Assembly: GCA_016183235.1 (NCBI GenBank)
Contig: JACPFA010000026.1
Span: 33,284 to 97,283, forward strand
Reading direction: 5' to 3'
DNA: 64,000 nucleotides
From: Deltaproteobacteria bacterium
GTDB taxonomy: Bacteria > UBA10199 > DSSB01 > JACPFA01
The notes below the pieces were generated by a model. The model was given only the letters and a program-made list of their open reading frames with translations, did no database searches and had not been told where the DNA came from. Position numbers and translations under genes: made by a program. Shown piece by piece: positions 1,901 through 63,089 of this stretch (position 1 is its first letter; every line of letters starts with the position of its first letter).

Positions 1901-1994
1901 CAAAAGAGATTGCTTAGCCATCGTGGATCCCGGATCCCCGGATCAAGTCCGGGGCAAGCTCGTCCGGGATGACGTGGGGTCGCAATGACAGAAG
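1901..1994. repeat. composite palindromic repeat (GGATCC-GC hairpin units plus a TCGCAATGACAG terminus)
   Basis: The sequence ...ggatcccggatccccggatcaagtccggggcaagctcgtccgggatgacgtggggtcgcaatgacag shares units with more than 10 other loci in the window. Confidence 0.8.
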
Positions 1995-1996
1995 TT

Positions 1997-3163
1997 TTAT
2001 TTTTTGGCGCGCATTTTTTGCACCTGTTGCAAGTTACCTTTAAAATCAGGATAAACTCGTGAGCCCTGTTTAAATTTTTCAAAGGCCGCTTTGGTTTTGC
2101 CTTCACTTAAATCAAGATGCCCTAGGTTGTAGAGGGCATAGGCCTCCCAGGCCGGGGCAGGTTTGTGTTGCAAAAACATTTCTAAAGATTTTCTCGCTTC
2201 TTGTGACCGTTTGAGTTTGAGCTGGCAATAGCCAATAAAGTAACGCGTCAAATAAATATCAGGATATTTTGTTTCCATCGCAGTGAACACTTGCAAGGCT
2301 TCTTGAAATTTGGCTAACCCAGTCAACATATTTCCTTTTAAAATTTGCGCCACCGCACTACCAGGATACGATTGCTCTAAGGTTTGGGCGATGCTCAAGC
2401 CTTTGGCGTAATTATGATATTCCCAATACACGAAAATGATGCCTGCCATAGCTAGGGGTTTGCCCACGCCACCTTTTTCAATGGCCAAATTCATTTTGCG
2501 AATCCCTTCTTGGCGCTGGTCTTTAAAAAAGGGCAAAAACTTGAACTTTTGCGTATAAACACTGCGCCAAAATTCATACATCCCCAACCCAAACCACGGA
2601 TCAAAAAAGTTAGGATCTTTTTGCACGCTCATTTGTAAGGCCTGCTTAGTATCGCCAGCTAGGCTTAAGGCCTTGAAGAGTTGGTCGGCCCGGATGTAAT
2701 AAAATGCCATTACCCCGCTAGAAGCCCCAGTGAGATAAAGGTCCCATGCGCTAGCATTAGGATCTTTTAAAATGACATCGTTGATGCTTTTAATTTTTTC
2801 GGTGATGGGTTTTAAACTGGTGTCTAAGCGAAAATCAAAATTTTCAAACATCTTGGATTGCAAAATCGCCATTTGCCCAAAAAGCCCCAACGGCGACTTT
2901 GGATATTTGTTTTCTAGGTTGTGAAAATAAGCCTCGGCCTCGGCGTATTTTCGATTTAAAACTAAATCGCGCCCGGTAATGGCGTCTTGGATGATTTCAG
3001 GGGTGGCCCCTTGGGGGATATAAATTTCGGCCCTTGCTAATTGAGGAGGGAGAAATAAGAAAAATAAAAGGAAGATTGCTTCGCTTGCGCTCGCAATGAC
3101 ACCTATATTAAAAAGGGATCTCTTCATAAGAGAAGTTGTGATGGATTTTAGATTTCGCTGCAA
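1997..3163 (-). CDS. exported TPR-repeat protein
   Basis: 388-aa ORF with repeated TPR-like helical units and a hydrophobic N-terminus ending LARA/EIY. The likelier start is ATG 3127 (MKRSLF...). Codons 3070-3103 of the signal region match the repeat family (VIASASEAI). Confidence 0.7.
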   Translation of the reverse strand: MQRNLKSITTSLMKRSLFNIGVIASASEAIFLLFFLFLPPQLARAEIYIPQGATPEIIQDAITGRDLVLNRKYAEAEAYFHNLENKYPKSPLGLFGQMAILQSKMFENFDFRLDTSLKPITEKIKSINDVILKDPNASAWDLYLTGASSGVMAFYYIRADQLFKALSLAGDTKQALQMSVQKDPNFFDPWFGLGMYEFWRSVYTQKFKFLPFFKDQRQEGIRKMNLAIEKGGVGKPLAMAGIIFVYWEYHNYAKGLSIAQTLEQSYPGSAVAQILKGNMLTGLAKFQEALQVFTAMETKYPDIYLTRYFIGYCQLKLKRSQEARKSLEMFLQHKPAPAWEAYALYNLGHLDLSEGKTKAAFEKFKQGSRVYPDFKGNLQQVQKMRAKK

Positions 3164-3312: not shown

Positions 3313-3936
3313 ATGAAACTCACCACGAAAATACTCAAAAAATTAGAGGCTATGTACCCTAGCTCCCATTGTGAATTGTACCATCAAAGCCCCTATCAAT
3401 TGTTAGTTGCCACCATTTTATCGGCCCAATGCACAGATAAACGGGTCAACATGGTAACTCCTGGGCTATTTAAAACCGCCCCCACCCCTAAGGCCATGTT
3501 AGAATTGAGGGAAAACCGCTTAATGGAAATGATCAAATCTTGCGGGTTTTACCGTACCAAGGCCAAAAATATCTTAAAAACCAGTCAGATCCTTTTAGAA
3601 AAATTTGGGGGGGAGGTACCACGCACCCAAGAAGAATTAATTCAATTACCAAGTGTGGGGCGAAAAACTGCCAATGTTGTACTTTACAATGCCTACGGGA
3701 TTGCCGCTATCGCGGTAGACACTCATGTCTTTCGAGTCTCTCAACGCCTAGGGTTGGCCAAGGGCAAGACCCCCGACCAAATTGAACAGCAACTCATGAA
3801 GGTGTTTGCCAAGCAAGATTGGGGCAAGGCCCATCATTTGCTTATTTTTCACGGTCGTTACCATTGCAGCGCACGCCGCCCCAAATGCGAAACTTGCCCC
3901 CTAACCGCTGAATGCCAGTATTATCAAACGCTATAA
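3313..3936 (+). CDS. nth: endonuclease III (DNA glycosylase/AP lyase)
   Basis: 207 aa with an HhH-GPD core (LPSVGRKTANVVL, VDTHVFRVSQRLGL) and the C-terminal 4Fe-4S Cys cluster C-x6-C-x2-C-x5-C (CSARRPKCETCPLTAEC). Confidence 0.92.
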   Translation: MKLTTKILKKLEAMYPSSHCELYHQSPYQLLVATILSAQCTDKRVNMVTPGLFKTAPTPKAMLELRENRLMEMIKSCGFYRTKAKNILKTSQILLEKFGGEVPRTQEELIQLPSVGRKTANVVLYNAYGIAAIAVDTHVFRVSQRLGLAKGKTPDQIEQQLMKVFAKQDWGKAHHLLIFHGRYHCSARRPKCETCPLTAECQYYQTL

Positions 3937-4347
3937 TTTGTAAATATTGTAGGTACCCATGGCCATGGCAATATCTTTCCCCTTATGCCGATAAACATGG
4001 GCTTCGGTAACGGCATGGGATTTACCACGGTATTTAACCTTCGCATCGCAATAGATAATTTCGTTTAATTTGACGGTTGAGATATAATTAATTTTAAATT
4101 CGATCGTTGAGCAACGCTCCCCTGCCTTTAGCCCGCTAAACAAACAAGCCCCCATAGAAAAATCAACAAAGGTAGAAATAACCCCACCATGAACCATCCC
4201 CGCAGGGCTGATATGCTTTGACTCGATTTTAAGGGAAGTCTTGGCAAAGTTTTCCTTGGCCTCAACAATTTCATAACCTACCAACTCGCCAAAATTATCT
4301 GGATGGGAGAATACCGCCGCGACCAACTGTCGATAATTTTTCACCAT
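3931..4347 (-). CDS. hotdog-fold thioesterase (PaaI/4HBT type)
   Basis: 138 aa with the motif PAGMVHGGVISTFVDFSMG typical of PaaI-family thioesterases. It converges on nth with a 6-nt overlap. Confidence 0.7.
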   Translation of the reverse strand: MVKNYRQLVAAVFSHPDNFGELVGYEIVEAKENFAKTSLKIESKHISPAGMVHGGVISTFVDFSMGACLFSGLKAGERCSTIEFKINYISTVKLNEIIYCDAKVKYRGKSHAVTEAHVYRHKGKDIAMAMGTYNIYKL

Positions 4348-4690: not shown

Positions 4691-4931
4691 GTCTTTTCGA
4701 GGTAGGGAGAGGCCAAGGGAGAGCCTTTTACCAGGAGGGCGGCCTATGATAGTTTCTGTCATTGCGAACTTAAGCGGGTGAAGCAATCTCTTCTGCCTAA
4801 GCGATGGGATTGCCACGCTCGCTATCATGGGTCCCCGCCTTCGCGGGGATGACACCGCTCGCAATGACAGAGGCCCTCATAGGCCGACCGGGCGCGGGCT
4901 CTCCATTGGCCTCTCCCTACCTCGAAAAGAC
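4691..4931. repeat. three-level nested palindrome (outer stem, then A-type element, then GC hairpin)
   Basis: The outer arms gtcttttcgaggtagggagaggccaagggagagcc / ggctctccattggcctctccctacctcgaaaagac enclose ggcctatga/tcataggcc. These enclose the ctgtcattgcga...tcgcaatgacag element (4756-4870), which in turn encloses atcatgggtccccgccttcgcggggatgacac (4824-4855). Confidence 0.85.
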
Positions 4932-6690: not shown

Positions 6691-6962
6691 AGAAAGCCCC
6701 TATCCCTTATTTGGTTTCGAGCTCCACGCCCCAGTGAGTTAGTTTGCAAGCTTCATACCCAAAGTTAAGACCTAATGAATTATTTTTTATTGAATAATTT
6801 CAAATAGATAGGATCGTCAATTTTGATGACGGAGGAAGACTGTGCAAGGTCATGGGTTAAAAAAAACCCATTTTATTGGGTTAGGCTTATCAAACACGAT
6901 GATTTTAAACAGGTTTTTATTTTAGTAGAATCTTACAAAAGTGGGGCAAAAAAGACTCTCTT

Positions 6963-7077
6963 CTGTCATTGCGAACCCAGCAGGGTGAAGCAATCTCTTC
7001 TGTTTAAGCGGTGAGATTGCCACGCTCGCTATCATGGGTCCCCGCCTTCGCGGGGATGACACCGCTCGCAATGACAG
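6963..7077. repeat. A-type composite palindromic element with a GC hairpin at its apex
   Basis: Near-identical to 4756-4870 (ctgtcattgcgaaccc...gattgccacgctcgct-atcatgggtccccgccttcgcggggatgacac-cgctcgcaatgacag). It ends 2 nt from the xseA stop codon. Confidence 0.9.
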
Positions 7078-7079
7078 AG

Positions 7080-8346: not shown

Positions 8347-8490
8347 GTGTCATTGAGAAGGAGCGTCTGTCATTGCGAGGCCTGTGTGGGCGGCCTTCTG
8401 TCATTGCGAACCCAGCGGGGTGAAGCAATCTCTTCTGCCTAAGCGGTGGGATTGCCACGCTCGCCAACGGGGCTCGCTCGCAATGACAGA
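8347..8490. repeat. cluster of A-type palindromic elements (short-apex variant)
   Basis: Three gtcattg(c/a)ga units. The 8396-8490 copy has the apex aacgggg where other copies carry a 32-nt hairpin. It supplies the last ~15 codons and the stop of the 8439..9965 ORF. Confidence 0.85.
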
Positions 8491-9965
8491 AGTACCCCAA
8501 TCGGCAGCAACAAACTCAACAACCCCAAATTAAGCCCTTGGCTACTATGTGCCGGGCTCAAACTCATTGTGCATTTCAAAAAGGGTTCGTCTGCTTTGGG
8601 CTCAACCCCATCATCAACTGCGGGGTCTCCCTGCCCTTCGGCAATACCAGGGTCTATCATCGGGGCAGGCGCAGGCGGGGCCTCACCCGGCGTCATATCA
8701 CAGGCATTACCCGCGGCATCTTGGTCATAATCGAGTTGATCGGGGTTTGCCACATTGACGCAATTGTCTGCGTCATCTTTAACCCCGTCGCCGTCTAAAT
8801 CATCGGGCACTTTACTAAAATCTTGATCACAGGCATCGCCCAAACCATCGGCATCTGAATCGATTTGTTCGATATTCGGCTCTAACGGGCAATTATCGAT
8901 TTCATTGGCAAAGCTGTCGCCGTCTTCATCAGCTGGTTTGTAATCTGGGTCGCAAACATTGCCTAAACCATTCTTGTTGCCATCGGCTTGATCGGCATTG
9001 GGCTCCATGGGGCAATTGTCGACCCCATTGGGAATGCCATCACCATCGTCATCTTTTGACGCACTGGCAGGCGGTTCTGACGCATCATCGCTCGCCCCAC
9101 CATTATTATCTGCATTGCCGTTGTTAGCCCCACCGTTATTTGCAGCATCTGCTGCATCCGCAATCAAACCACCATAACCCCAGGCTTCATCCCTGGCTTC
9201 AACCACGGGGTCGATCGGTACTCCATAATCGACCACCACAATCGTGGTATAGCCTTCTGCATCAGCAGCTTCTTCTTCAATCACCGGTTCTTCTTCATCA
9301 CTTGGGGGATCAAAACTTGCTTCATCGTTGATTGCACCTTCATCTTCATCGGGAGGTGGTGGGGGGGGAGGTGGTGGTGGTTCTTGCGGCAATTTCCCTT
9401 CGGAATTTAATTGAACCTTTTTTCCGGAGGCATCTTCAACCCATACGTTTTCAAACTTATTGCTGGGCATGGTACACAAGGCTTTCTTAATATCTTTAGC
9501 TTTCACCGTAAAATTTTTGAAGAGGCTATCGGTGATGTTGATATTAAAAACACACTGGCCTTCGGGTGGGTTGACGTTCAACCCATTGAGCACCACCGAT
9601 TGAGCCTTGGATCCATCAAAAATCAGATTCTTGCCATCACCATTGAGATCATTCTGAACTTCCTGACCATAGTCATTATAAGACACAGGCCCCACCTCTA
9701 TGTTCAAACTTAAAATTGGAATGGGAATATTAAAAGATTTACCAGCCGCAAAATCGATTCTTTCCCGGCATTCTCGAGGTTGGCCATTGGCCCCATTAAA
9801 AACATTGATTTTTCGGCATAAGGATATGACCTTGCCAGGATCGCAAGTTTTGGTGCTCACCACCGAGGCATCGTTGGCATCGGTGCAAAAATCTTCTGCC
9901 TGGGCGGCCTGGGCCAGGAATAAATGAAGCAGCACGGCCCCCAAGATACCCACACCCCTTTTCAT
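8439..9965 (-). CDS. secreted thrombospondin type-3 repeat (Ca-binding) protein with a C-terminal Cys + TM tag
   Basis: The likely start is ATG 9965 (MKRGVGILGAVLLHLFLAQAAQA, a signal peptide), in an ATGA overlap with the upstream gene. It has an 11-Pro run, an acidic linker and three DNCPxxxNxxQxDxDxDGxGDxCD repeats. The C-terminus reads KCTMSLSP...LLSLLLPIGVLLSL. Confidence 0.8.
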   Translation of the reverse strand: MKRGVGILGAVLLHLFLAQAAQAEDFCTDANDASVVSTKTCDPGKVISLCRKINVFNGANGQPRECRERIDFAAGKSFNIPIPILSLNIEVGPVSYNDYGQEVQNDLNGDGKNLIFDGSKAQSVVLNGLNVNPPEGQCVFNINITDSLFKNFTVKAKDIKKALCTMPSNKFENVWVEDASGKKVQLNSEGKLPQEPPPPPPPPPPDEDEGAINDEASFDPPSDEEEPVIEEEAADAEGYTTIVVVDYGVPIDPVVEARDEAWGYGGLIADAADAANNGGANNGNADNNGGASDDASEPPASASKDDDGDGIPNGVDNCPMEPNADQADGNKNGLGNVCDPDYKPADEDGDSFANEIDNCPLEPNIEQIDSDADGLGDACDQDFSKVPDDLDGDGVKDDADNCVNVANPDQLDYDQDAAGNACDMTPGEAPPAPAPMIDPGIAEGQGDPAVDDGVEPKADEPFLKCTMSLSPAHSSQGLNLGLLSLLLPIGVLLSLRASPVGERGNPTA

Positions 9966-11173
9966 AAAGATCCCCGCTTTCGTCTTAAAATCAATCCCCA
10001 CAACACTGGGATTCCCCACAACCAGCTCCCCAAATGAGGCGCAGCTGCAGTTAAGCTAAACAAACAATCCGTTCCTTCATCATGCACGCTGGTACCAATG
10101 GTAGCGACCGGTGGTTGGTTCACCGTGGGGGTTTCACTGGTGGCAGGTTTACAAACTTCGGCATTTTGATCGGCATTGGCAAGCGTTGGGCAATTATCTT
10201 GGGCATCGGCCACGCCATCACAATCAGCATCGCCCTCACAGGCAATGTCAAAGATGGGAGTGGGCGTTGGGCTTGAAGCGGGTGCAGTTGGCGTTGGAGT
10301 GGGGGTTGGTGTACCTGAAGGCTGTGTCTCGGGCTCGCCGCTAGGGCTAGGCGTCGGTGATTCGGAAGGTTGTGTTTCGGGTTGAGTTTCGGGTTGAGTC
10401 TCAGGCTCGCTACTAGGGCTTGCCACAGGTGGTGTGCTTGGGCTGGGCGCCGGGCTGGGTGATTCAGATGGCTGTGACTCCGGTTGTGTCTCCGGCTCGG
10501 GTTCCCCCTCGGGAGTTTCATCACAAATATCACCTGTCGCATCATTATCGGTGTCTTTTTGATCTGCATTGGCATGCTCAGGGCAGTTGTCTTGTTCATC
10601 AGGCATGTGATCGAGATCTTTATCGCCTTCAACTTCAACATTTTCTAAAACCAAGTCAAAATCGTCTGGGGCATATTTCCCCTCTTCAATGAAAGGCAGA
10701 TAAGTGCCCGTTTCTACTATCTGCACGGGTAAATTACGCACAACGAAATTGCGGATGACCACCCGCCCTTTGGGGGCATCCACCGTCATGAGGGCGTCAC
10801 CGGGGTCGAGCTTGCTGCCATCTAAAATAACTTTGTAGCCTTTACCCAAATTGCCATCGATCACGAGCAGATTTTTATCTTCATCTTTGGTCGTATCAGA
10901 CAAATTCATGACCCCAATCGTGCTATCGGGGGTAACGGTATAGGTGGTTTCATCATCGGCCTTAAAATTGACGAGCTTAAAATCGATTTTGTTGAGGCAT
11001 TCGAGGTTGAGGTTATAGGCTTGATAGATTTTGCGAGCCAGTGACCCCAGATGGGAAATGTCGTATTTTTTAACCTCGACCGTGCAATGATAGGGATCAG
11101 AAGGCTTGGCCATGGCCGACACCCCCCACAACCCAAAACTTATGACATAGAGTGTCAAGAAAAATCGTTTCAT
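9962..11173 (-). CDS. secreted thrombospondin type-3 repeat protein, paralog of the downstream gene
   Basis: 403 aa with a signal peptide (FGLWGVSAMA) and an N-domain similar to the 8439 protein (NLLVIDGN vs NLIFDGS, IRNFVV vs LFKNFTV). It has DNCPEHANADQKDTDNDATGDICD and DNCPTLANADQ repeats, a P/E/T/Q/S low-complexity linker, and the C-terminus DCLFSLTAAAP-WLWGIPVLWGLIL-RRKR. Confidence 0.8.
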   Translation of the reverse strand: MKRFFLTLYVISFGLWGVSAMAKPSDPYHCTVEVKKYDISHLGSLARKIYQAYNLNLECLNKIDFKLVNFKADDETTYTVTPDSTIGVMNLSDTTKDEDKNLLVIDGNLGKGYKVILDGSKLDPGDALMTVDAPKGRVVIRNFVVRNLPVQIVETGTYLPFIEEGKYAPDDFDLVLENVEVEGDKDLDHMPDEQDNCPEHANADQKDTDNDATGDICDETPEGEPEPETQPESQPSESPSPAPSPSTPPVASPSSEPETQPETQPETQPSESPTPSPSGEPETQPSGTPTPTPTPTAPASSPTPTPIFDIACEGDADCDGVADAQDNCPTLANADQNAEVCKPATSETPTVNQPPVATIGTSVHDEGTDCLFSLTAAAPHLGSWLWGIPVLWGLILRRKRGSL

Positions 11174-13961: not shown

Positions 13962-14045
13962 GGAAGATTCTTTACCATCATGGGTCCCCGCCGGAGTTTA
14001 CCCCTGCGTAGGCAGGGGCAGGGATGACATGGTTCAGAATGACAG
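13962..14045. repeat. GC-hairpin repeat with an inner insert
   Basis: ggaagattc...atcatgggtccccgccggagtttacccctgcgtaggcaggggcagggatgacatgg...aatgacag has a near-copy at 18670-18753. Confidence 0.85.
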
Positions 14046-17966: not shown

Positions 17967-18119
17967 GGGGGGACCTCTAAAAAGGGCGTGAGATGCAAGG
18001 CGCCCGCAAAGGCGCGACCGGAGCGTATATGGAAATACGTGAGGATCGCGGCTTTGCGGGCAATCCTTCGCTTACGCTCTGGACAGGCTCTGCAGATGGG
18101 TCGTTTTTAGAGGTCCCCC
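17967..18119. repeat. D-type structured palindromic element, copy 1
   Basis: Terminal inverted repeats GGGGGACCTCTAAAAA / TTTTTAGAGGTCCCCC and an internal 15-bp stem (18002-18016 with 18047-18061). It is homologous to 56903-57028 and abuts the stop codon at 18120. Confidence 0.85.
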
Positions 18120-18669: not shown

Positions 18670-18753
18670 GGAAGATTGCCACGGCATCATGGATCCCTGC
18701 CGGAGTTTACCCCTGCGCAGGCAGGGGCAGGGATGACATTGCTCGCAATGACA
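18670..18753. repeat. GC-hairpin repeat with an inner insert (copy of 13962-14045)
   Basis: ggaagattgccacggcatcatggatccctgccggagtttacccctgcgcaggcaggggcagggatgacattgctcgcaatgacag. Confidence 0.85.
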
Positions 18754-22858: not shown

Positions 22859-23060
22859 GTAATGCTTCAGTCTTGCAGGGAGAGCGCTTGGGTTATTTCG
22901 TCAGCCGCGCTCCATCGGCGACCCTCATGGGGCTAGCCGGCACGGAAGCCTTCCGGTATAACCGGCTTTCCATGCCGGCTAACCCGCATGGGGGCCCCGC
23001 CGCTTCCGCGATGGCTTCCTCAACAACCCAAGCACTCTCCCTGCAAGACTGAAGCATTAC
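22859..23060. mobile_element. MITE-like palindromic element (E-type, copy 1) with an 8-bp target-site duplication
   Basis: 202 bp with terminal inverted repeats of ~36 bp and one mismatch (gtaatgcttcagtcttgcagggagagcgcttgggtt / aacccaagcactctccctgcaagactgaagcattac). It is flanked directly by CTTGATGC at 22851-22858 and 23061-23068. Confidence 0.8.
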
Positions 23061-27868: not shown

Positions 27869-28858
27869 TCAAGATCCGTTGGAATTTACGGGTGGAATCT
27901 CTCGGGCCAAATGGCAGGCCACCCACTTGCCAGGTTCAAAGGTTTCTAAGCCGGGCCGTGTGTTTTTGCAAAGGTCTTGGACATACTGACAGCGTTTGTG
28001 AAAAACGCAACCCTCCGGAAGATTGATGGGCGAAGGCACCTCACCGCCCAATAATTTAGGGGGTTTACGCTCCACCGAAACCTCCATCACACTACCCAAC
28101 AGGGCCTGCGTATAAGGATGACGGCATTGAAAAAGCTGATCGGCAGGCAGGGTTTCTACCACGTGGCCCAAATACATCACCGCAATTTCGTCGCTGATAT
28201 GCCGCACCACTTTAATATCGTGGGCAATAAAAATATAGGTGAGGTTCATCTCTTGCTGCAGCTCTTTTAAAAGATTAATAATTTGGGCTTGAATTGAAAC
28301 ATCGAGCGCGCTCACCGGCTCGTCGGCCACGACTAATTGCGGATGCAACATGAGGGCACGGGCAATGCCAATGCGTTGGCGCTGGCCGCCGGAAAATTCG
28401 TGGGGATATTTGCTACGGGCGTTGTGCGGCAGCCCCACTCGGTCGAGCATGGCCTCCACTTGTTTTTGCCGTTCTGGATAATCCCCAATTTTTTGCACGA
28501 TGAGGGGTTCTTCTAAAATGTCCCCCACTCGCATCCGGGGATTGAGTGAAGAATAAGGGTCTTGAAAAATCATTTGAAAATGCCGGCGCAAGGGCCGCAA
28601 TTGCCCCTCGGTAAGATCGGTAAGGTTGGTGCTGTCAAAATAAATTTTGCCTTGGCTTGGGTTAATCAGGCGCATGATCATGCGCCCCAGCGTGGTTTTG
28701 CCACAGCCCGACTCGCCAACAAGACCCAAAGTCTTGCCCTTTTGCAAGGTAAAACTCACCCCATTGACCGCTTGCACTTGGCCAACGGTGCGGCCCAGAA
28801 ATCCCTTGCGGATGGGAAAATGTTTCACTAAATTGTCAACTTTAAGAAGTTCAGTCAT
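27869..28858 (-). CDS. oligopeptide/dipeptide ABC transporter ATP-binding protein (OppF/DppF type)
   Basis: 329 aa with Walker [10 protein letters not shown], signature FSGGQRQR, Walker B LVVADEP and the C-terminal oligopeptide-type extension. Confidence 0.9.
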
Positions 28859-29125
28859 AATTTCATATCATTACAAAGCACATGTTTTCTGTCATTGCGA
28901 ACGATGTCATCCCCGCGAAGTATGCCCTCGACCCCGATCGGGGGGCGGGGACCCATGATACCGAGCGTGGCAATCCGACCAAAGGTCGTCCTGAGGCTTT
29001 AGCCGAAGGATCTCTTACAAACGAAGAGATCCCTCGCAAAACCTCGGGACAATGCTTCGCATTGGATTGCTTCACCCTGCTGGGTTCGCAATGACAGAGA
29101 ATAAAAGGCTCGCAATGACAAAAGA
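28859..29125. repeat. 267-bp mosaic of A-, GC-hairpin- and C-type repeat modules between two ATPase genes
   Basis: It contains ctgtcattgcgaac, gtcatccccgcg...cggggacccatgat, cgagcgtggcaatcc, the C module gtcctgaggctttagccgaaggatctcttacaaacgaagagatccctcgcaaaacctcgggac, and two tcgcaatgaca termini. Confidence 0.9.
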
Positions 29126-30127
29126 TTAATAATTCAGACATCGTAAATTCTGCCCTTCTCCTACGTACTTTTCGCTTGGCACTTTTAAGTGACAAGCCGC
29201 GCTCACATTAAAGCAGCGGTCGGCAAAACGACAGCCCTCTGGTAATTCTGCCAAATCAGGGACCTTGCCAGGAATTGACGCAAGAGTTCCGGTTTTTTGA
29301 CGCAAGGTGGGGATGGAATGCAGTAGCCCTAGCGTGTAGGGATGTTTGGGTAAACTAAGTAGCCGCCCTACGGGAGCCTGCTCCACCACCATGCCGGCGT
29401 ACATCACCAACACTTCATCACAAATTTGCGAAACCACCCCTAAATCGTGGGTGATGAGGATGACCGCCATGCCCATCTCGGCAACCAATTCACGAATTAA
29501 TTGTAAAATTTGCGCTTGCACCGTTACATCCAGCGCGGTGGTGGGTTCATCGGCAATTAAAATATCGGGGTGGCAAGACAAGGCCATGGCGATCATCACC
29601 CGTTGCCGCATGCCACCGCTCATTTGGTGAGGGTAGTCATCAATGCGACGTTCGGGGTCAGGGATTTTAACCTTGGTTAACATTTCAATCGCCAACTCGC
29701 GGGCCCGCCCTTTATTGACCTTTTGATGCAAAATAATGGCCTCCATAATTTGTTGGCCCACCGTATAAACCGGGTTGAGGCTGGTCATGGGTTCTTGAAA
29801 GATCATGGCGATCTTGGCCCCTCGCACCTCGCACATTTTTTCTTCGTTGAGTTTCAATAAATCAACCGGCAAGGCAGGCTGCTCTTCTTGGCTGGTAAAT
29901 AAAAAGACTTCTCCAGATTCAATCTTACCCGGGGCATCAACCAGCCGCATTAAAGATAAACTAGTGACCGTCTTGCCACAGCCCGATTCGCCCACAATCC
30001 CCAAAATCTGCCCCCGCCGTAGGTCAAAACTCACGTGGTCGACCGCCACGAGTTTTTTGCCTTTAAGCGTAAAGGTCGTAACCAGGTCTTTGACTTTTAA
30101 CAATAATGGATCCGCAGCTTTTTTCAT
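29126..30127 (-). CDS. oligopeptide/dipeptide ABC transporter ATP-binding protein (OppD/DppD type)
   Basis: 333 aa with Walker [10 protein letters not shown], signature MSGGMRQR and Walker B ILIADEP. Confidence 0.9.
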
Positions 30128-31158
30128 TCTACACTCTTGAGTTTTGGATCAATGGCGTCACGCAACCCCTCTCCCACCAAATTAAACGCCGTGATCGTCA
30201 AAAAGATAGCTATACCCGGAAATAATGTTAACCACCAAGCGATATCGATAAAATCACTGGCCTGCGAAAGGATATCGCCCCAACTGGGGGTGGGCGGCTG
30301 CACTCCAAAGCCAATAAACGAAAGGCTCGATTCCACCAAAATGGCACTGGCCACCCCAAAAGTGGCTGACACAAATACCGGCGCTAAAGCGTTGGGCAAG
30401 AGGTGTTTGCGCATGATGCGAAAGACCCCCATACCCTGCGCTCGACAGGCCACGATAAAATCTTGATGACGCAGTTTTAAAAATTCCCCCCGAATGAGCC
30501 GGGCAATACCGGTCCAGCCGGTTAGGCCAATGACGATCATGATATTATAAATAGAGCCTCCCACGAGAGTGATGATCGTGATGATTAAGAAAAATGTTGG
30601 AAAACAAATCATTACCTCAATGACGCGAGAGAGAATCCAATCCATTTTGCCACCAAAATAGCCAGCCAGCGCCCCGAAGAAAACCCCAATCAAGGTATAA
30701 ATCGACACCGCCACGAAACCGACGGACAATGAGATGCGACTACCATGAATCATGCGGCTTAAAATGTCGCGGCCTTGTTCGTCGGTGCCTAACCAATGCG
30801 CCGAACTTGGGGCTAAGAGACTTGCGTCAAGATCATAATCGCCTGGTGAATAAGGCACGGGGGCAAAATAGGCCCAACCGGTTTCTTCCATCATCGTTTG
30901 CCAGGTATCGTCATCGATTTGAGGATAAAGTTTGAGATACGAAAAGGGCCAGAGGTTTTGCAAAACAGGGAAATAAGTGCTGCCCTCATGACGCAACAAC
31001 AAAGGCCGGCCATTGGCCAAGAAAGGGGCAGACAAAGCCATGAGGGCAAGCAGAATCACGATACATAGGCCCAAGCGATTAAGCCAACTGACTTTAAATT
31101 GTCGCCATACCATTTGGCGGTAACTCAAGACTTTTTCCATATTAATTTCTTCCATCAT
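30124..31158 (-). CDS. peptide ABC transporter permease (OppC/DppC type)
   Basis: BPD-transport permease with an EAA-like loop (AQGMGVFRIMRKHLLPNA). The start is taken at ATG 31158 (MMEEINMEK). The track's TTG start at 31266 would translate a repeat unit. Confidence 0.85.
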   Translation of the reverse strand: MMEEINMEKVLSYRQMVWRQFKVSWLNRLGLCIVILLALMALSAPFLANGRPLLLRHEGSTYFPVLQNLWPFSYLKLYPQIDDDTWQTMMEETGWAYFAPVPYSPGDYDLDASLLAPSSAHWLGTDEQGRDILSRMIHGSRISLSVGFVAVSIYTLIGVFFGALAGYFGGKMDWILSRVIEVMICFPTFFLIITIITLVGGSIYNIMIVIGLTGWTGIARLIRGEFLKLRHQDFIVACRAQGMGVFRIMRKHLLPNALAPVFVSATFGVASAILVESSLSFIGFGVQPPTPSWGDILSQASDFIDIAWWLTLFPGIAIFLTITAFNLVGEGLRDAIDPKLKSVE

Positions 31159-31252
31159 GGATCCCGGGCCTGCCCCGGACTTGGATCCGGGGTCAAGCCC
31201 GGGATGACGGGGGCACATCAATCCGGATCTAGCCCGGGATCCATAAATGACA
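31159..31252. repeat. two GC-hairpin repeat units between the permease genes
   Basis: catggatcccgggcctgccccggacttggatccggggtcaagcccgggatgacggggg...ggatctagcccgggatccataaatgac. Confidence 0.85.
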
Positions 31253-32332
31253 TCATAATTTTTCAAACGTAATGCGCGGATCGGCCCACTTGTAGGCTAG
31301 ATCCGCTAAAAATAAACTAATTAAGGTTAACCCTGCTGAAATCGTCGCAATCCCCATAATGGTGGTATAATCGCGCGCCTTCAGTGATTCAAAACTTAAC
31401 AACCCCATGCCGGGAATATTAAAAATCTCTTCAATGATCACCGAGCCACCCAACAATTCAGGCAACAGGGTACCAATGAGCGTGATGAGTGGAATCATGG
31501 CATTGCGTAAACCATGGCGCCAAATCACCACCCCTGGGCTAAGCCCCTTGGCCCGCGCGGTGCGCACATAGTCTTGGCCTAGCACCTCGAGCATATTGGC
31601 ACGCGTAAAGCGGCTCAAAAAAGCAAAACTGCCATACACCATCACCACAACCGGCAAAACCAGGTGCCATACAATGTTGCCCGCCTTAGCGTACCAAGCT
31701 GCGGTGTCCATGCCATCGGACAAAAAGCCCCCTAAAGGGAACCATGAAAAATGTTCGCCCCCGGCAAAATACATGAGCAACAAAATAGCGATCCAAAAGC
31801 TGGGCAAACTGTAAAGGACAAACATCCCCACCATCATGATTTTATCTTTGAGGGTGTTGCGATTTAGAGCCGAATAAACCCCCAACAGCACCGACACTGT
31901 ATAAACAATGATGATATCTAAAATGTTGAGAGTTAAAGTCACGGGCAAGGCTTCGCGGATTTTATCAAGCACGGGGCGACGATCGGGTTTAAGCGAACGC
32001 CCAAAGTCAAACACGGCAATACGAAGGAACCACTTGCGATACTGAATGGCATTTTCACCAAACCAACGCCCGGCTTTGGCTAACCATTGGGGTTTTAGGT
32101 TTTTGATGAGTCGATCGTAGTGGGTGGGCAATGGCGTATCTAAGCCATATTGCCGACGCATCATTTTAATGACCTCAGGTGAAACTTCTTCGCTTTTAGC
32201 CAACCCTTCTAAATTGAGTTTCATGGTAATGGGATCGCCCGGGGCTAGCTTGATCATGAAAAATGTAACCAGCGTAATGCCCAGCATGGTGGGAATCATG
32301 AGTAACAGGCGTTTGAAGATATAGTTTAACAT
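31253..32332 (-). CDS. peptide ABC transporter permease (OppB/DppB type)
   Basis: 359 aa with an N-terminus MLNYIFKRLLLMIPTMLGITLVTFFMIKLAPGDP and the motif ARAKGLSPGVVIWRHGLRNA. Confidence 0.9.
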   Translation of the reverse strand: MLNYIFKRLLLMIPTMLGITLVTFFMIKLAPGDPITMKLNLEGLAKSEEVSPEVIKMMRRQYGLDTPLPTHYDRLIKNLKPQWLAKAGRWFGENAIQYRKWFLRIAVFDFGRSLKPDRRPVLDKIREALPVTLTLNILDIIIVYTVSVLLGVYSALNRNTLKDKIMMVGMFVLYSLPSFWIAILLLMYFAGGEHFSWFPLGGFLSDGMDTAAWYAKAGNIVWHLVLPVVVMVYGSFAFLSRFTRANMLEVLGQDYVRTARAKGLSPGVVIWRHGLRNAMIPLITLIGTLLPELLGGSVIIEEIFNIPGMGLLSFESLKARDYTTIMGIATISAGLTLISLFLADLAYKWADPRITFEKL

Positions 32333-32338
32333 AGTTGT

Positions 32339-34003
32339 TTATGGCGCGGCCTTGACTGTCCATTCTAAGGGGTCAAGGCCACCGCGATAGAGCTGTACGT
32401 TGCTAAACCGTTTATCAAGGGCTACCAAACTCATGGTAGCATACAAAAATGTGTAAGGCTGTTCATCATAAATAATGCGATGGATGCGTTTAAGCAACAA
32501 GTCGCGCTCGGCCTGATCAAAGGTCACTCGCACTTGTTCGATGAGGCTGTCGGCCTCGGCATTTTGAAAACTGACAAAATTATGCCCTTCTTTAATTTGA
32601 GAAGAATGCCAAATTTGGTAAGGATCGGGGTCAAAACTGCCACTCCAGCCTAAAGACACTGCATCAAAATCACGTTGGTTGACTTTTTGTAAAAACACTG
32701 ACCATTCTATCCGACTTAAAGTTACATCGATCCCCACCCGTGCCATGTTATTTTTCATGATGCTCCCCAGCCGTTCATAAAAACGAGCCCCGGCGGGAAA
32801 AAGGAATGTAAAGCGAAAGGGCTTTCCATCTTTGTCAATAACGCCATCGCCGTCATGATCTTCCCAACCCGCCGCTTTCAACAATTGTTTGGCCGAAGCG
32901 GGGTTAAACTCGATGGGGGGCAAACTATGGTCATAACCATAAACTTGTGGCGAAAAGGGGCCAGTGGAAGCTTCGCCCAAATTAAATTCGAGTTTTTCAA
33001 CGATCTCTTTTTGATTAATTAAGTGCGACAAGGCCTTGCGCACGCTTGCATCTTTAAACCAAGGGCGCTTGGCATTCCACCCAATGTAACGATAGCCTAA
33101 ACTTGAATATTGAAAACGGTAAAACTTCTTTTGAAATTTTTCAGATTGAGTTTGTTTAACCCACTGAATGGGCCTTAAACCAGCCTGGTCTAAATCGCCT
33201 TTTTTGAGCATTTGCAAGGCGACCGTATCGTTCGATACAATTTTAAAATAAATCCGCTTAATCTCGGGGGTGTGTTGTTTGTCCCAATAATTGGGATTGG
33301 CCTCTAAAACAATGGCCGCCCCCGATTCCCACTTTTTGAAAACATAAGGACCTGACCCCACCGGATGGCGATTGATTGCCGCCGTGTTAAAATCGTAGCT
33401 GTCGTCTTTGACTAACTGCCTAACCCAAGAATGTTCGGAAAAACTTTTGAGTTGGTTGTCGGCCGAACCATATAAATGACGAGGTAAAATGGGCATGCCC
33501 CCAATAAATTCCAAGGCTCGGAAATAGGGCCGAGCATAGGTAAATTTAACCGTGTGGGCATCGAGCTTTTCAACCGACTTTATGTCTTGATAATAATTGC
33601 GTAAGTGCGCGGCATTTACCTTGGGGTCTCGAATGCGGTCATAACTAAACAAAATATCATCGGCCGTTAAAGCTTGGCCATCGTGCCAGGTCACATCTTT
33701 GCGCAAATGAAAGATGTATTCTAAATGATCATCGCTCACCTCCCAACGCCAGGCAATTTTGGGAACAAACTCTAGGGTTTTATTGTCGCGAATAATCAAA
33801 TAATCAAAAATGAAATTATCGACCCTACTTTCATAAACATCTTGCCCCAAGATGGGGTTGAGCACATCGGGCTCGCCGCCCATATGATCGATCAAGGTGT
33901 AAGGATCTTTGGGTGGCTGCCAACTTGAGCAACTAAGCATCAATGTCATCCCCGCGAAGGCGGGGATCCATGATAGTAAAGCAATCTTCAACCTTAGTTT
34001 CAC
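32339..34003 (-). CDS. ABC transporter substrate-binding lipoprotein, family 5 (OppA/DppA type)
   Basis: 554 aa with family-5 SBP features. The signal peptide MKLRLKIALLSWIPAFAGMTLMLSC has its hydrophobic core (33939-33990) encoded by a GC-hairpin repeat unit. Confidence 0.85.
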   Translation of the reverse strand: MKLRLKIALLSWIPAFAGMTLMLSCSSWQPPKDPYTLIDHMGGEPDVLNPILGQDVYESRVDNFIFDYLIIRDNKTLEFVPKIAWRWEVSDDHLEYIFHLRKDVTWHDGQALTADDILFSYDRIRDPKVNAAHLRNYYQDIKSVEKLDAHTVKFTYARPYFRALEFIGGMPILPRHLYGSADNQLKSFSEHSWVRQLVKDDSYDFNTAAINRHPVGSGPYVFKKWESGAAIVLEANPNYWDKQHTPEIKRIYFKIVSNDTVALQMLKKGDLDQAGLRPIQWVKQTQSEKFQKKFYRFQYSSLGYRYIGWNAKRPWFKDASVRKALSHLINQKEIVEKLEFNLGEASTGPFSPQVYGYDHSLPPIEFNPASAKQLLKAAGWEDHDGDGVIDKDGKPFRFTFLFPAGARFYERLGSIMKNNMARVGIDVTLSRIEWSVFLQKVNQRDFDAVSLGWSGSFDPDPYQIWHSSQIKEGHNFVSFQNAEADSLIEQVRVTFDQAERDLLLKRIHRIIYDEQPYTFLYATMSLVALDKRFSNVQLYRGGLDPLEWTVKAAP

Positions 34004-34383
34004 TTGTCACACTCCCATGATTGAAAATAAAAATGAAGTTGCACCTTCGGCCGTTTGAGCTTAAGCAACATGGAGTTTCCAGAAGATTGCCTCAAGAATA
34101 GATCCACCCATTCTTTGCGTTTTAATTTAAAACCAAAAATTTTTTTGAACTGCTTTTCATCGCCTTCAAACTGATAAAGAGTTTGGCCAAAATCGTCGAG
34201 CATTTCAAAGCGGATTTGATCGGGGGCCTGGGCTTCGATAACTAAATCAAAATGCAGCTTTTTCTTTTTCGCTTCTAAATCAACTTGGGCCACGGCCTTA
34301 ACGCCAAGACAGGCCACTGCGGGATCATCGCCCCAGGCGACCCCTGGCCAAACCAAGATCAAAGCTAATAAAAAACATGTCAT
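34000..34383 (-). CDS. small exported protein, function unknown
   Basis: The start is taken at ATG 34383 (MTCFLLALILVWPGVAWG/DD, a signal peptide). The upstream 62 codons of the track ORF are repeat sequence. It overlaps the SBP gene by 4 nt. Confidence 0.55.
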   Translation of the reverse strand: MTCFLLALILVWPGVAWGDDPAVACLGVKAVAQVDLEAKKKKLHFDLVIEAQAPDQIRFEMLDDFGQTLYQFEGDEKQFKKIFGFKLKRKEWVDLFLRQSSGNSMLLKLKRPKVQLHFYFQSWECDK

Positions 34384-34565
34384 TGCGCGGAACTCTGTCA
34401 TTGCGAACCCAGGGGACTCTCTGTCATTGCGAGCCCAACGGGCGTGGCAATCCCACCGGTTAGACGCAGAGAGATTGCTTCGCCCTGCTGGGCTCGCAAT
34501 GACAGAGAATTCCCTTGGCTCGCAATGACAGAGAATTCCCTTGGTTCGCAATGACAGAATAAAGC
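34384..34565. repeat. array of gtcattgcga / tcgcaatgac units, including a 26-bp tandem repeat
   Basis: Three forward and three reverse termini. ctcgcaatgacagagaattcccttgg is repeated in direct tandem with no spacers. Confidence 0.9.
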
Positions 34566-36227
34566 TCATGGCGTTATTTTCTTTCGAATTTTTTCTAAGT
34601 CTTCTTTTTCGCGCCGATCTAAGGTTTTCTTTTCTTCCAATAATTTTAAGGCCCGGCGAAAATATTCTTGGGCTTTGGTCTCTTGATTGAGCTTGCGATA
34701 AACCTCACCTAAATGATCTAGCAAGGTATATTCGTTGGGCGCCATAAGGTCGGCCTTTTTTAAATAAAAGAGCGCCTTTTCTAAATCGCCTAAGCGAAAA
34801 TAAACCCAGCCTAAACTATCGGTAATATAACCATCGGCGGGATCTAGTTTGATTGCCTTCTGAATAAGCTCCAAGGCCTCTTGCAACTTAATGCCTTGAT
34901 CGGCCCAGGCATAGCCCACATAATTCAATGCCATCGGGCTTTTGGGATTAACCTCTAAGAGCTTTTGCATGGTGGTGACACTCGCTTCTACCTTCCCCAC
35001 TTTGTCGTAGGCAACTCCCAAAGAAAATAATAATTTTTCACTCCCGGCAAAGGTTACGAGTGCTTTTTCTAAAACAGCAATGCCTTCGGAATATCGATTT
35101 TGCTTACTTAGTACGGCGGCTAAAATATCGTAATAGTCAGGGTCGGCTTTTTTCTTAAGTAAGGCCTTGAGTTCAGATTCAATGAGTTTATATTTTTCTT
35201 GGTCAAATAATAGCACCCATTTGCGAATCGAGACCTCGTGAAATAGGGTCGAATCGGGGGGTAGTTTGGCATAAGCGTTAACGGCTTCATCCATCTTTTT
35301 TTGCACTTCATAGGTGAGCCCCAAATAATAAAGCAACTGGTCGCTATTGGGATTAAACCGCAACACCTTGGCAAAGCGTTTTTCAGCCTCGGGGTAATTT
35401 TGCAATTGAAAGTAGAGAATGCCCGCCCGCAGGGTAATGTCTAAATCGCCAATGGCGAGCTTTTCTAATCTACTCATGTAACCTTCGGCTTCTTTAAATT
35501 TTTTAGCATCGATGTAAATGCGGGCCAGGCTTGCCAATGCCCGAATGTCGTCGGGATCAAAATCTAAAACCTTTTTGAATGCGATAATGGCTTGTGCGTC
35601 ATTTTTTAGTTGCACCGAATAAATCGACCCCAACGAATAATAGGCTAGTTTGGCCTTGGGGTTTTGCCGAATCCACTGTTGGGTAGCCACCAGGGCGGTT
35701 GGGTAATTCTTCATCAACAGATATTCCCTCACCAACATTTTATGTGCATCTTCATAGGTAGCATTTAAACGAATAGCGGTGCGGTATTCTTGCAGTGCCG
35801 CCGCATGATTTTCTTGTAAAGAATAGACCTGCCCCACTAACACATGATATCGGCTATTGCTGGGTTCGCGATGAGTGGCTGCTTTGGCTTGCACCAGGGC
35901 TTGTGGCAATTGATGGGTCTCGGTTAAAGTGCGGGCGTATTCATAGTGTAAATAAGCCGACTCTGGATCCGCTTCTACCGCACGTTGTAGGGCGTTTTCT
36001 GCTTGGGAATTGGCACCGCGGAAGGCAAAGAGTTGGGCATCGAGGAAATTGAGAATGGCATCGGGGGCTGCCGGTGTTACTTCTTTTTCGCCTGCCCACG
36101 GCAGGGCCCTTTGTGGAGGCGGCCTGCCTTTGGCCTTGTGAATTGAACCTTGCGTATGACTACAAGCAACTTGAATGCCGAATAGGGGAATCGCGATTAG
36201 TAATCGAAAGGCGAGCTTCAGTTTCAT
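34566..36227 (-). CDS. TPR-repeat lipoprotein
   Basis: The start is taken at ATG 36227 (MKLKLAFRLLIAIPLFGIQVACSH, with a lipobox). More than 10 TPR units run through the body. The track start at 36290 lies in repeat sequence. Confidence 0.75.
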   Translation of the reverse strand: MKLKLAFRLLIAIPLFGIQVACSHTQGSIHKAKGRPPPQRALPWAGEKEVTPAAPDAILNFLDAQLFAFRGANSQAENALQRAVEADPESAYLHYEYARTLTETHQLPQALVQAKAATHREPSNSRYHVLVGQVYSLQENHAAALQEYRTAIRLNATYEDAHKMLVREYLLMKNYPTALVATQQWIRQNPKAKLAYYSLGSIYSVQLKNDAQAIIAFKKVLDFDPDDIRALASLARIYIDAKKFKEAEGYMSRLEKLAIGDLDITLRAGILYFQLQNYPEAEKRFAKVLRFNPNSDQLLYYLGLTYEVQKKMDEAVNAYAKLPPDSTLFHEVSIRKWVLLFDQEKYKLIESELKALLKKKADPDYYDILAAVLSKQNRYSEGIAVLEKALVTFAGSEKLLFSLGVAYDKVGKVEASVTTMQKLLEVNPKSPMALNYVGYAWADQGIKLQEALELIQKAIKLDPADGYITDSLGWVYFRLGDLEKALFYLKKADLMAPNEYTLLDHLGEVYRKLNQETKAQEYFRRALKLLEEKKTLDRREKEDLEKIRKKITP

Positions 36228-36237
36228 AATAAAAAGC

Positions 36238-36292
36238 CACCATTGCGAAGTAAGAGAGATTGCTTCGCCCTGCTGGCCTCGCAATGACACAG
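36238..36292. repeat. A-type palindromic unit
   Basis: accattgcgaagtaagagagattgcttcgccctgctggcctcgcaatgacac. Confidence 0.8.
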
Positions 36293-47666: not shown

Positions 47667-48905
47667 ATGGGCGATCTTACATGTAATCAACTGCCACACT
47701 CTGTTGAAATTCAATCCTTCAAAGATGGACAGGTTTATACTGTCAGTCCAGAGCCCACCATACCTCAAGCCCAATACATCTTTGATATCGCGTTTCCCAC
47801 TAACGATCTTTATTTGGCCATGCTCAAAGATAGTAACAATGGCCTGTTTTGCGTGTACCCCGTTAAAGGCAGCGAACGCCTAATATCTGATGTCTTGCTT
47901 CGCGCGTATCAGCTTGAAAATAGCGAAATCCTACCCTTTGGAATCCCCTTTCCCTTGGCTTCTACGAATACTCGTATCCCAACGCTCGGAGTTCTCTACC
48001 ATCCTGACTCTAGTATTTTTCTCACCCTAAGTACCGAAAGTCTTCAGTGGCACTTGATTGGCTATGGGGTTGCGGTGGCTCATTATATGGGCTTATTTAC
48101 TACACTGAACGGCATTTATTACGATGCTTATAAACAACTAGCTGATGCCTCACCCCTTACTTCTGCTACATCCCAAACACCCGCTGTTTCACCACCACCA
48201 ACCTATCAAAGAGAGTTGCCCCTGTTCTTAGATTGGTTGTCTATGAATCACCCCATGCTAGCGCTCCAATGGGAACCTTTACTAACCTATGACGATGGCC
48301 CCAACCCCTTTGCAACCAGCCTTGCGCAATATAACCCCAGCCAAGATAAAATTGTGCTCCGCCCAGCGGCCCTAGAAATGATGCTTCAAGGGGAATATGA
48401 ATTGCTATTTTATTTCCTGCTTCACGAGGCAACGCATCGCGAATTGGTGATGGCAAACGTGCTTTCTCCCATTGCTATCATTGGCCCCAAAGTGGTTGCT
48501 TCTTACGCCACTCGGCTTTATGACGCTCGCCCCGGCAAAACAATTAACGAATGGAAACAAGCGCTTGGTTCTTTGCAACCTCTCTATTACCCTGATGAAG
48601 AAATTTTAGCCTATTTAAAACAATTCGATGCCATGCGCAGCGATCCGGATATTCCAGAAAGTGAATTAGAAAATGTGACTTTAAGTTTATGGAATCATAT
48701 CCAACAAACTTTAGATTACGGGAAGCACGAAAGCACGCTCGTTTTGGGCTATCTCTTATATGGTGTTGATTTTTTACTCCCCCAAAGCCCTCATGCTAAG
48801 CAATATAAAAACCTTTTTGTCGGTTGTTTTGACTACCAGAACGACCCCAGTTGCCAGGATCCCGTATCACTCTACACTCAACTCATGGCTCCGGAGGCTC
48901 CCTAA
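47667..48905 (+). CDS. hypothetical protein with an HExxH motif
   Basis: 412 aa with no signal peptide. LLFYFLLHEATHRELV is the only recognisable motif. Confidence 0.5.
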   Translation: MGDLTCNQLPHSVEIQSFKDGQVYTVSPEPTIPQAQYIFDIAFPTNDLYLAMLKDSNNGLFCVYPVKGSERLISDVLLRAYQLENSEILPFGIPFPLASTNTRIPTLGVLYHPDSSIFLTLSTESLQWHLIGYGVAVAHYMGLFTTLNGIYYDAYKQLADASPLTSATSQTPAVSPPPTYQRELPLFLDWLSMNHPMLALQWEPLLTYDDGPNPFATSLAQYNPSQDKIVLRPAALEMMLQGEYELLFYFLLHEATHRELVMANVLSPIAIIGPKVVASYATRLYDARPGKTINEWKQALGSLQPLYYPDEEILAYLKQFDAMRSDPDIPESELENVTLSLWNHIQQTLDYGKHESTLVLGYLLYGVDFLLPQSPHAKQYKNLFVGCFDYQNDPSCQDPVSLYTQLMAPEAP

Positions 48906-54489: not shown

Positions 54490-54532
54490 CGAGATTGCCA
54501 CGCTCGCCGACGAGGCTCGCTCGCAATGACAA
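54490..54532. repeat. A-type repeat half-element (short-apex variant) between atpD and atpC
   Basis: gagattgccacgctcgccgacgaggctcgctcgcaatgacaat. Confidence 0.8.
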
Positions 54533-56902: not shown

Positions 56903-57028
56903 GGAGGCCTCGAAAAAGGGCCCAGATGCAAGGTGCCTGCAAAATCGCGCCCGGGGCGTATGTGCAAATACGTGAGGATCGCGATTTTGCAGGCAACGCC
57001 GCAGATGGGTCGTTTTTAGAGGCCTCCT
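56903..57028. repeat. D-type structured palindromic element, copy 2 (between atpA and atpG)
   Basis: Termini GGAGGCCTCGAAAAA / TTTTTAGAGGCCTCC and a perfect 15-bp internal stem (56935-56949 with 56980-56994). It is homologous to 17967-18119 and ends 2 nt from the atpA stop. Confidence 0.85.
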
Positions 57029-60652: not shown

Positions 60653-60710
60653 TTTGTCATTGCGATCCACGTCATCCCGGGCCTGACCCGGGATCCACGA
60701 TGACGCAATC
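60653..60710. repeat. A-terminus plus GC-hairpin repeat unit
   Basis: tttgtcattgcgatccacgtcatcccgggcctgacccgggatccacgatgacgcaatc. Confidence 0.85.
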
Positions 60711-62870: not shown

Positions 62871-63089
62871 TAAAAAGCGAGGGATGCGACTTTGCGGTTG
62901 AGTTAGCTTTTTCGACCCATCGCGGAATCGCCGGGGCCCCCAATGCGGGCTAGCCGGCATGGAAAGCCGAGGCCCGCCGCAGGCGGGAACGCGGAAGGCT
63001 TCCGTGCCGGCTAGCCCCATTAGGGTCGGCGATGGAGCGCCGGGTCGAAAAAGCTAACTCAACCGCAAAGTCGCATCCCTCGCTTTTTA
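62871..63089. repeat. E-type palindromic element, copy 2 (same core as 22907-23014, different outer stem)
   Basis: Outer arms taaaaagcgagggatgcgactttgcggttgagttagctttttcgaccc and their complement. The core 62917-63040 is about 94% identical to the reverse complement of the E1 core. Confidence 0.85.

Follow-up and report, generated by a model that had tools for sequence, protein, structure and literature searches.

The A element of this 64,000-nt stretch of DNA (the window) consists of two copies of a hairpin frame, TGTCATTGCGA...apex...GCAATC, in inverted orientation with their tags outward. In this lineage the apex takes discrete alternative forms: a loop of 10 nt, a loop of 11 nt or an entire second hairpin. 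Judged by its sequence, this second, GC-rich hairpin belongs to the family of CGTC-tagged REPs, dRS3, NTS and Ssn-related motifs (SRM hereafter). Two features are new: Ssn-type motifs are nested one in the apex of another, and the published SRM pattern misses a widespread frame that is tied to GIY-YIG nuclease genes.

The frame is composed of a TGTC tag, a stem of 5 bp (ATTGC/GCAAT), shoulders rich in GA, an apex that varies freely and a tail, CTC or CCC. Its 5' part, TGTCATTGCGA, occurs 26 times in the window with up to one mismatch, against 1.4 expected. Read on the strand beginning TGTCAT, the apex-bearing (beta) half of the A element is TGTCATTGCGAGCG-X-GCGAGCGTGGCAATC, where X is AGCCCCGTTG in the short copies and GTGTCATCCCCGCGAAGGCGGGGACCCATGATA in the filled copies. 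The other (alpha) half is TGTCATTGCGAACCCAGCGGGGTGAAGCAATC, and a 19-nt spacer lies between the two. Each frame is predicted to fold into its outer stem of 5 bp, with a small hairpin at the apex, and the whole doublet is predicted to fold strongly as single-stranded DNA, both in the short form (8396-8490, -26.7 kcal/mol, z = -5.1) and in the filled form (4754-4871, -33.9 kcal/mol, z = -6.3). The conserved tag is unpaired and gives the frame hairpin its orientation, as in SRM-type motifs. In a frame variant, TGTCATTCTGA...AGAATC, the stem is preserved by double changes (ATTCT/AGAAT vs ATTGC/GCAAT). The A elements end in inverted repeats (TCTGTCATTGCGA/TCGCAATGACAGA), are 95-212 nt long and have no coding capacity, as is typical of MITEs; no target-site duplication was found at orthologous filled vs empty sites or at the hairpin junctions. 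All elements located in the window are collected in Table 1.

Table 1. Positions of A elements, solo units, composites and nested hairpins in the window
Feature	Position	Strand	Details
A doublet, short apex	8396-8490	+	alpha 8399-8430 (+), 19-nt spacer, beta 8450-8488 (-)
Short apex of the 8396 copy, AGCCCCGTTG	8465-8474	-	10 nt
A doublet, filled apex	4754-4871	+	alpha 4757-4788, beta 4808-4869 (-)
Complete 33-nt SRM hairpin of the 4754 copy, GTGTCATCCCCGCGAAGGCGGGGACCCATGATA	4823-4855	-	SRM pattern match 4827-4854
A doublet, filled apex	6961-7078	+	alpha 6964-6995, beta 7015-7076 (-), SRM 7030-7062 (-)
A doublet, three nested levels	28887-29098	-	between two opp ATPase genes
Beta half of the 28887 copy	28890-28975		SRM whose loop carries a 24-nt GC hairpin (28921-28944)
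C-type inverted pair, spacer of the 28887 copy	28985-29014 (+), 29026-29050 (-)		
Alpha half of the 28887 copy	29065-29096	-	
Solo beta half-unit, short apex AGCCTCGTCG	54493-54531	-	atpD-atpC spacer
SRM and 3' frame part (GTAAAGCAATC), no 5' frame	33944-33986	+	just upstream of the oppA-like gene
Frame ends TGTCATT...GAAGAA around two SRMs	31147-31252	-	one SRM with a nested insert (31153-31208)
Cluster	34378-34558		short A doublet (34422-34452 +, 34473-34504 -), 26-nt minimal units on both sides
Composite: frame TGTCATTGCGA...GCAATC, CCCGGG-type SRM at the apex	60655-60710	+	fold z = -4.65
Composite: frame, SRM with a second hairpin in its loop (CCCCGGACTTGATCCGGGG)	1908-1990	-	
Composite: frame, CCCTGCC-type SRM with nested hairpin	18674-18753	-	
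Sister of the 18674 composite, frame variant TGTCATTCTGA...GAATC	13966-14044	-	
Solo alpha-type unit	36258-36289	-	
Solo minimal unit	3074-3101	-	
Outer 35-nt inverted repeat, 97% complementary	4691-4725 and 4897-4931		filled A copy at its centre

A sequence-only reading of the window had described the A element as existing in short-apex and filled-apex forms, and the alignments bear this out. After the shared sequence GATTGCCACGCTCGC, the short-apex units at 8396 and 54493 read CAACGGGGCT and CGACGAGGCT, respectively, followed by CGCTCGCAATGACA. At the same position the beta halves of the 4754 and 6961 copies, an identical pair, read TATCATGGGTCCCCGCCTTCGCGGGGATGACAC before continuing with CGCTCGCAATGACA. 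The 28887 copy carries the same GC hairpin with 24 extra nucleotides in its loop (TATGCCCTCGACCCCGATCGGGGG), and the C-type module that had been noted nearby is an inverted pair within its spacer. The unit at 54490-54532, which had been taken for a further A copy, is not a truncated A; it stands alone as a half-unit in the spacer between atpD and atpC. Aligning the A copies revealed no continuum of apex sequences: three discrete states with sharp boundaries are present, the third being GCCCAACGGGC, found at 34422-34452 and in one other locus (L130).

The same reading had proposed that the GC hairpin is a discrete unit inserted at a defined position. Its discreteness holds, given the sharp boundaries, a 97% identical copy at 33944-33976 outside any A element, free-standing SRMs elsewhere and membership in a published repeat family. 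Simple insertion into the short form does not hold. The filled copies lack the 10-nt short apex, and apex filling is therefore a replacement of the apex rather than a clean insertion, the two forms being alternative states and not an empty site and its insert. The position is the same in the framed copies of the window, but it is the variable tip of a conserved frame. Duplications at the junctions had also been suggested as a check; the one repeat that flanks the hairpin, GCGAGCG, belongs to the frame and occurs in short copies too, and thus does not represent a target duplication. The apex states do differ between copies, and a single event could underlie all three filled A copies. "Inserted" thus overstates the evidence; the observation itself is real, and the GC hairpin is a known repeat type.

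The GC hairpin has the structure TGTC-ATCCCCGC-GAAG-GCGGGGAy-CCA, with GCGGGGAT on the 3' side of the stem, and folding of 33940-33985 gave an 8-bp stem and a 4-nt loop. All copies carry an unpaired 5' tag, TGTC or CGTC, before the stem. The stem, loop and tail of the hairpin agree with those of the family, namely 8-9 bp starting with AT, 4-5 nt and CCA, respectively. The published degenerate SRM pattern, HGTCWYN(0-2)YYVSBRHN(0-5)WNVSBRGN(0-2)RNCYNB (PMC11893778), had five matches in the window, where 50 shuffles gave an expectation of 0.04. The 24-nt hairpin core was found three times (up to 3 mismatches) against 0 expected, and GATTGCCACGCTCG seven times (up to 2 mismatches) against 0.35. 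None of the frames in the window, and none of the 270 frame units in the 120 loci listed by the scan described below, matched the SRM pattern. Nine SRM copies in the window, of three subtypes (CCCCGCG, CCCGGG and CCCTGCC), follow TGTCATTGCGA by 4-5 nt and precede GCAATC by 2-9 nt, or else lie in a decayed or partial frame. Just left of the window, one SRM, a CCCGGG-stem hairpin of a different subtype, is free-standing (L150:6009) and another has a 3' frame only. Altogether, 11 of the 12 SRMs observed in the source genome lie within at least a partial frame; in other phyla, canonical SRM hairpins also occur without any frame (L062, L115, L118). Rfam and tRNA scans matched no family, a literature search with the raw sequence returned primers only, and a paper on Coxiella MITEs held no sequence matching the elements. 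Searches for similar DNA in plasmids found none, and viral contigs gave no match to the beta-unit pattern.

A near-canonical Neisseria-type NTS (TGTCATTCCCGCGAAAGCGGGAATCCAG) is present in Parcubacteria, Sedimentisphaerales and Melainabacteria MAGs (L045 5306-5333; L062, L115, L118), and in L045 the NTS-like sequence occupies the spacer of a frame doublet. In the composites at 60655, 1908, 13966 and 17296, and at 2545-2597 of a contig from a related genome (L147), CCA, the hairpin's own 3' tail, directly precedes the hairpin tag. CCAYG consequently flanks the hairpin core on both sides in these five composites, and not in the filled A copies; it could mark the tail-to-tag junction of tandem units or be a duplication.

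Nesting recurs at several levels. Small further hairpins lie in the loops of four SRMs, SRMs lie in frame apices, and doublets lie in the spacers of other doublets and at the centre of a larger palindrome. Elements thus appear, from their sequences, to occupy the tips of other hairpins as a recurring pattern. Several copies share descent, which leaves the number of independent events uncertain. At palindrome centres, nesting could also mean that elements are tolerated there and not that they are targeted to the site. Symmetric nesting does not fully account for the 34.4-kb cluster, where the same-side 26-nt units are identical at 25 of 26 positions, pointing to local tandem duplication. The copies are also mosaic. 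Between the 4754 and 6961 copies, which have identical beta halves and differing alpha halves, there are nine differences in the first 54 nt and none in the last 65 (Fisher p = 5.5e-4). A lineage-specific metagenome scan added only two further A copies, both short, on a related metagenome contig; Logan assembly contigs break at repeats and so do not span the elements. Counting the two metagenome copies, all four combinations of alpha-apex and beta-apex states exist, indicating that the modules reassort.

Orthologous sites were compared with those of a relative (L147, L148; 80-92% nucleotide identity). At the oppB-like/oppC-like junction the relative has a 31-nt short unit, TGTCATTCTGAACCCAGCAGGGTGAAGAATC (L148 20333-20367), whereas in the window the same frame ends enclose about 100 nt with two SRMs. 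The relative has no element at the sites corresponding to 54493-54531, 60655-60710 and 36258-36289, and no target duplication; its atpD-atpC spacer is 11 nt long. Site 33944 differs in another way: in the relative the 5' frame and the tail of the SRM, CCATGAT, are present and the tag-stem-loop-stem core is missing, and the window genome has the hairpin and the 3' frame with no 5' frame. This looks like a full composite ancestor that suffered different losses, which is the simplest reading, and loss clearly also occurs. At the site of the 34.4-kb cluster, the native sequence of the relative shares 10 of 11 positions with the tag (P ~0.0016 per 40-nt window). Resemblance of empty sites to the tag was considered as a rule and dropped, being significant at one of four sites; the other three are not tag-like.

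The frame extends well beyond this lineage. A scan anchored on the beta half, with one genome per species and the source genome not among the loci listed, recovered at least 120 loci in many phyla; hosts among the matches listed include Patescibacteria, Chloroflexota, Planctomycetota, Helicobacter, Nitrospira, Melainabacteria, Proteobacteria and others. Those matches comprise 270 units and 78 tags-outward doublets, the latter in 60 of the 120 loci listed, and the A architecture is therefore general. Anchor spacing among the matches listed is 11-14 nt in 71% of 124 units; in the rest the inserts vary, and many are GC hairpins. Both the sequence and the length of the apex vary freely between phyla.

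In several genomes the frame encloses a gene. The scan placed a GIY-YIG gene of about 100 aa (Pfam PF01541) exactly between two frames at three loci (L026, L042, L074). A protein-first search found frames flanking the gene at four of five informative loci (L128, L138, L142/L144, L146). L132 also has frame flanking, in a more complex arrangement; L127 is a GIY-YIG locus with canonical SRMs, and L129 was not informative. In total, eight distinct gene loci (nine locus ids) have frames on both sides of GIY-YIG genes of about 100 aa, tags outward. Since the frame flanks such genes on both sides in other genomes, the A element looks like the gene-less counterpart of a frame-nuclease-frame unit. Comparison of the frame-flanked nucleases, candidate members of the Ssn family (cd10448), with NCBIfam gave sub-threshold matches only, and their sole PDB relative is 1ZG2, a UPF0213 protein. 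Within the 64-kb window, hmmsearch and tblastn (E>0.1) found no GIY-YIG gene. A weak tblastn match at 3934-4086 was set aside, the ORF that contains it (3931-4347) appearing on inspection unlike a GIY-YIG gene. In the Staskawiczbacteria MAG (L026 265-655), the frame-GIY-YIG-frame unit starts directly after the atpD stop codon, and the solo frame unit of the window (54493-54531) begins 3 nt past the atpD stop codon; the parallel may be coincidence.

The closest known system is that of SsnA, a 94-aa single-domain GIY-YIG protein and site-specific single-stranded DNA nuclease (Chenal et al. 2025, PMC11893778). SsnA binds NTS hairpins as single-stranded DNA and cuts upstream of them, and its gene is typically flanked by the motif, as NTS-ssnA-NTS (PMC11893778). 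The likeness is threefold: the GC hairpin fits the SRM pattern and is close to the NTS CGTCATTCCCGCGMAVGCGGGAATCYRG, the frame lies on both sides of small single-domain GIY-YIG genes, and the copies are many, mostly intergenic and spread across phyla. The differences are that the frame falls outside the published pattern, with an outer stem of only 5 bp and a free apex, that motif-in-motif nesting and apex swapping are absent from the main text of PMC11893778, and that the 64-kb window holds no ssn gene. CGTC-tagged REPs, which include Neisseria dRS3 and Rickettsia RPE-4 and RPE-6, have a CGTC or TGTC tag, an 8-9 bp stem starting with AT, a 4-5 nt loop and a CCA tail, and are stated to have no dedicated enzyme (Di Nocera et al. 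2013, PMC3733652). Tag, stem, loop and tail are common to those REPs, mostly head-to-head dimers, and to the elements here, but in the present case a tagged repeat of the same superfamily itself serves as the host palindrome, and nesting is three to four levels deep. The means by which CGTC-type REPs (dRS3, NTS, RPE and relatives) multiply has been an open question since their first description.

Other repeats offer more distant parallels. The REPIN/BIME-RAYT systems of E. coli and Pseudomonas resemble the present elements in their inverted short-hairpin doublets and mosaic clusters, in a single-copy gene flanked by the same hairpins and in presumed recognition as single-stranded DNA; they differ in tag (GTAG vs YGTC here) and in enzyme (an HUH tyrosine transposase vs a GIY-YIG nuclease). 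ERIC/IRU repeats exist in short and long forms, the long form having an extra block at a fixed place inside the repeat, but for ERIC that block is not known to be an independent repeat family. Rickettsia palindromic elements lie in frame inside coding regions, as does the cluster at 34378-34558. The sequences of ERIC/IRU and of the Rickettsia palindromic elements are unrelated to the elements described here.

We give slightly better than even weight to an explanation by nicking and repair, in which the hairpins act as single-stranded DNA, an Ssn-type nuclease acts on them and apices are copied from donors. An Ssn-type single-strand nuclease, whose gene would lie elsewhere in the genome, would recognize the hairpins. 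Copying from another family member would then repair a nick made close to the tag or at an exposed hairpin tip, with the conserved frame flanks TGTCATTGCGAGCG and GCGAGCGTGGCAATC serving as homology, such that the apex of the donor would replace that of the recipient with no target duplication. The same process would seed new copies at tag-like sites. Counting for this explanation are the SRM family identity, the spread of the frame over many phyla, the GIY-YIG link, the sharp and discrete apex states, the mosaicism, the same-locus difference in apex, the empty orthologous sites, the compensated stem, the one tag-like site and the predicted nested folds. Counting against it are the lack of a GIY-YIG gene within the 64-kb window, a frame unmatched by the published SRM pattern, the tag-like character of only one of four empty sites, the apparent loss of the hairpin by the relative at site 33944 and the part of the 34.4-kb cluster that resembles a 26-nt unit duplicated locally in tandem. 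Also to be set against it, GIY-YIG enzymes cut DNA and do not join it. Chenal et al. (2025, PMC11893778) showed the nuclease partner and demonstrated no SRM mobility experimentally, which likewise counts against the explanation. A stronger version, in which the tagged hairpins form a nuclease-driven, non-autonomous mobile system whose hairpins are swapped at apices and seeded at tag-like sequences, including inside genes, seems to us rather doubtful; if true, it would be a homing-like counterpart of REPIN/RAYT across many phyla and would explain the spread of CGTC-type REPs.

Loss rather than gain could also have produced the two forms. The filled composite of frame and SRM would be ancestral and the short apex would arise by loss of the hairpin, for instance through replication slippage across the palindrome. 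Palindromes are prone to deletion, nearly all SRMs of the source genome lie in frames, and at site 33944 the relative retains the 5' frame and CCATGAT without the hairpin core. However, AGCCCCGTTG consists of 10 nt that are absent from the filled form and so is not its deletion product, deletion between the two GCGAGCG repeats would leave one repeat, which is not observed, and among the matches listed none of the units with 11-14 nt between anchors has a tagged SRM. We regard loss as unlikely to be the general explanation. Still less probable is that the apex differences are neutral divergence of a loop and that the elements act at the level of RNA, as stabilizers or processing sites like REP/BIME in E. 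coli operons. The positions at the three opp intercistronic junctions examined and in the atpD-atpC spacer fit such a role, as does the hypervariable apex across phyla, but the filling is a complete repeat of an independent family, with its own tag and tail and a 97% identical copy elsewhere. Conservation of the unpaired tags across phyla points instead to recognition by a protein, and no Rfam family matched. The least probable account takes A as a classical MITE or a transposase-moved REPIN (DDE, RAYT/IS200-like), with the hairpin a second element transposed into it; we consider it very unlikely. Terminal inverted repeats of 13 bp, the strong fold, the REPIN-like doublets and presence or absence between related genomes all suit it, but no junction shows a target-site duplication, the gene found between the same termini elsewhere is a GIY-YIG nuclease and not a transposase, such that the parent IS of a MITE is missing, and the tag is YGTC and not the RAYT-linked GTAG. 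For the question whether Ssn nicking drives hairpin copy-in and copy-out, the locus offers concrete substrates and predictions: a second, widespread frame type outside the published pattern, natural short, filled and doubly filled alleles, mosaics, same-locus differences between genomes, and the structural regularity of elements in the tips of other hairpins.

The elements touch genes directly, at apparent ATG start codons, in a signal-peptide coding region and at opp and atp cistron junctions. In the opp-type ABC transporter operon (27869-34003), elements are present at the three intercistronic junctions examined (28887-29098, 31147-31252 and 33944-33986). The reverse complement of the tag (TGTCAT to ATGACA) appears to provide start codons to downstream genes (33936-33950, minus strand; 34300-34320, minus strand; L148 ~17600). 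The oppA-like gene starts at ATGACATTGATG here, within an SRM tag, vs ATGATAGGG in the relative, within a frame tag, and ATGACATGTTTT, where the cluster ends, could serve as a restart point for a 189-aa ORF. The cluster at 34378-34558 lies within the signal-peptide part of ORF 34000-34569 (minus strand), which stays open throughout, placing about 180 nt of repeat units in frame in a small secreted-type protein; this recalls Rickettsia palindromic elements inside genes. In 8439-8490, a 526-aa ORF with thrombospondin type 3 repeats (8439-10019, minus strand) enters the beta half of the short A copy, with its last ~16 codons and its stop codon inside the repeat.

Other features of the window stand apart from these elements. 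Two long palindromes of about 200 nt (22859-23060 and 62871-63089), with arms of up to 63 nt that are 92-96% complementary, have no sequence in common with the A, SRM or C modules. An unrelated 84-nt repeat is present at 56913-56996 and 17980-18063, the copies being 81% identical, and in the relative the orthologous site lacks the stretch of ~160 nt that includes the copy downstream of atpA. The segment 47619-48908, which carries a 412-aa ORF (47667-48905) with no Pfam match, is likewise absent in the relative, where its flanks lie about 10 nt apart.
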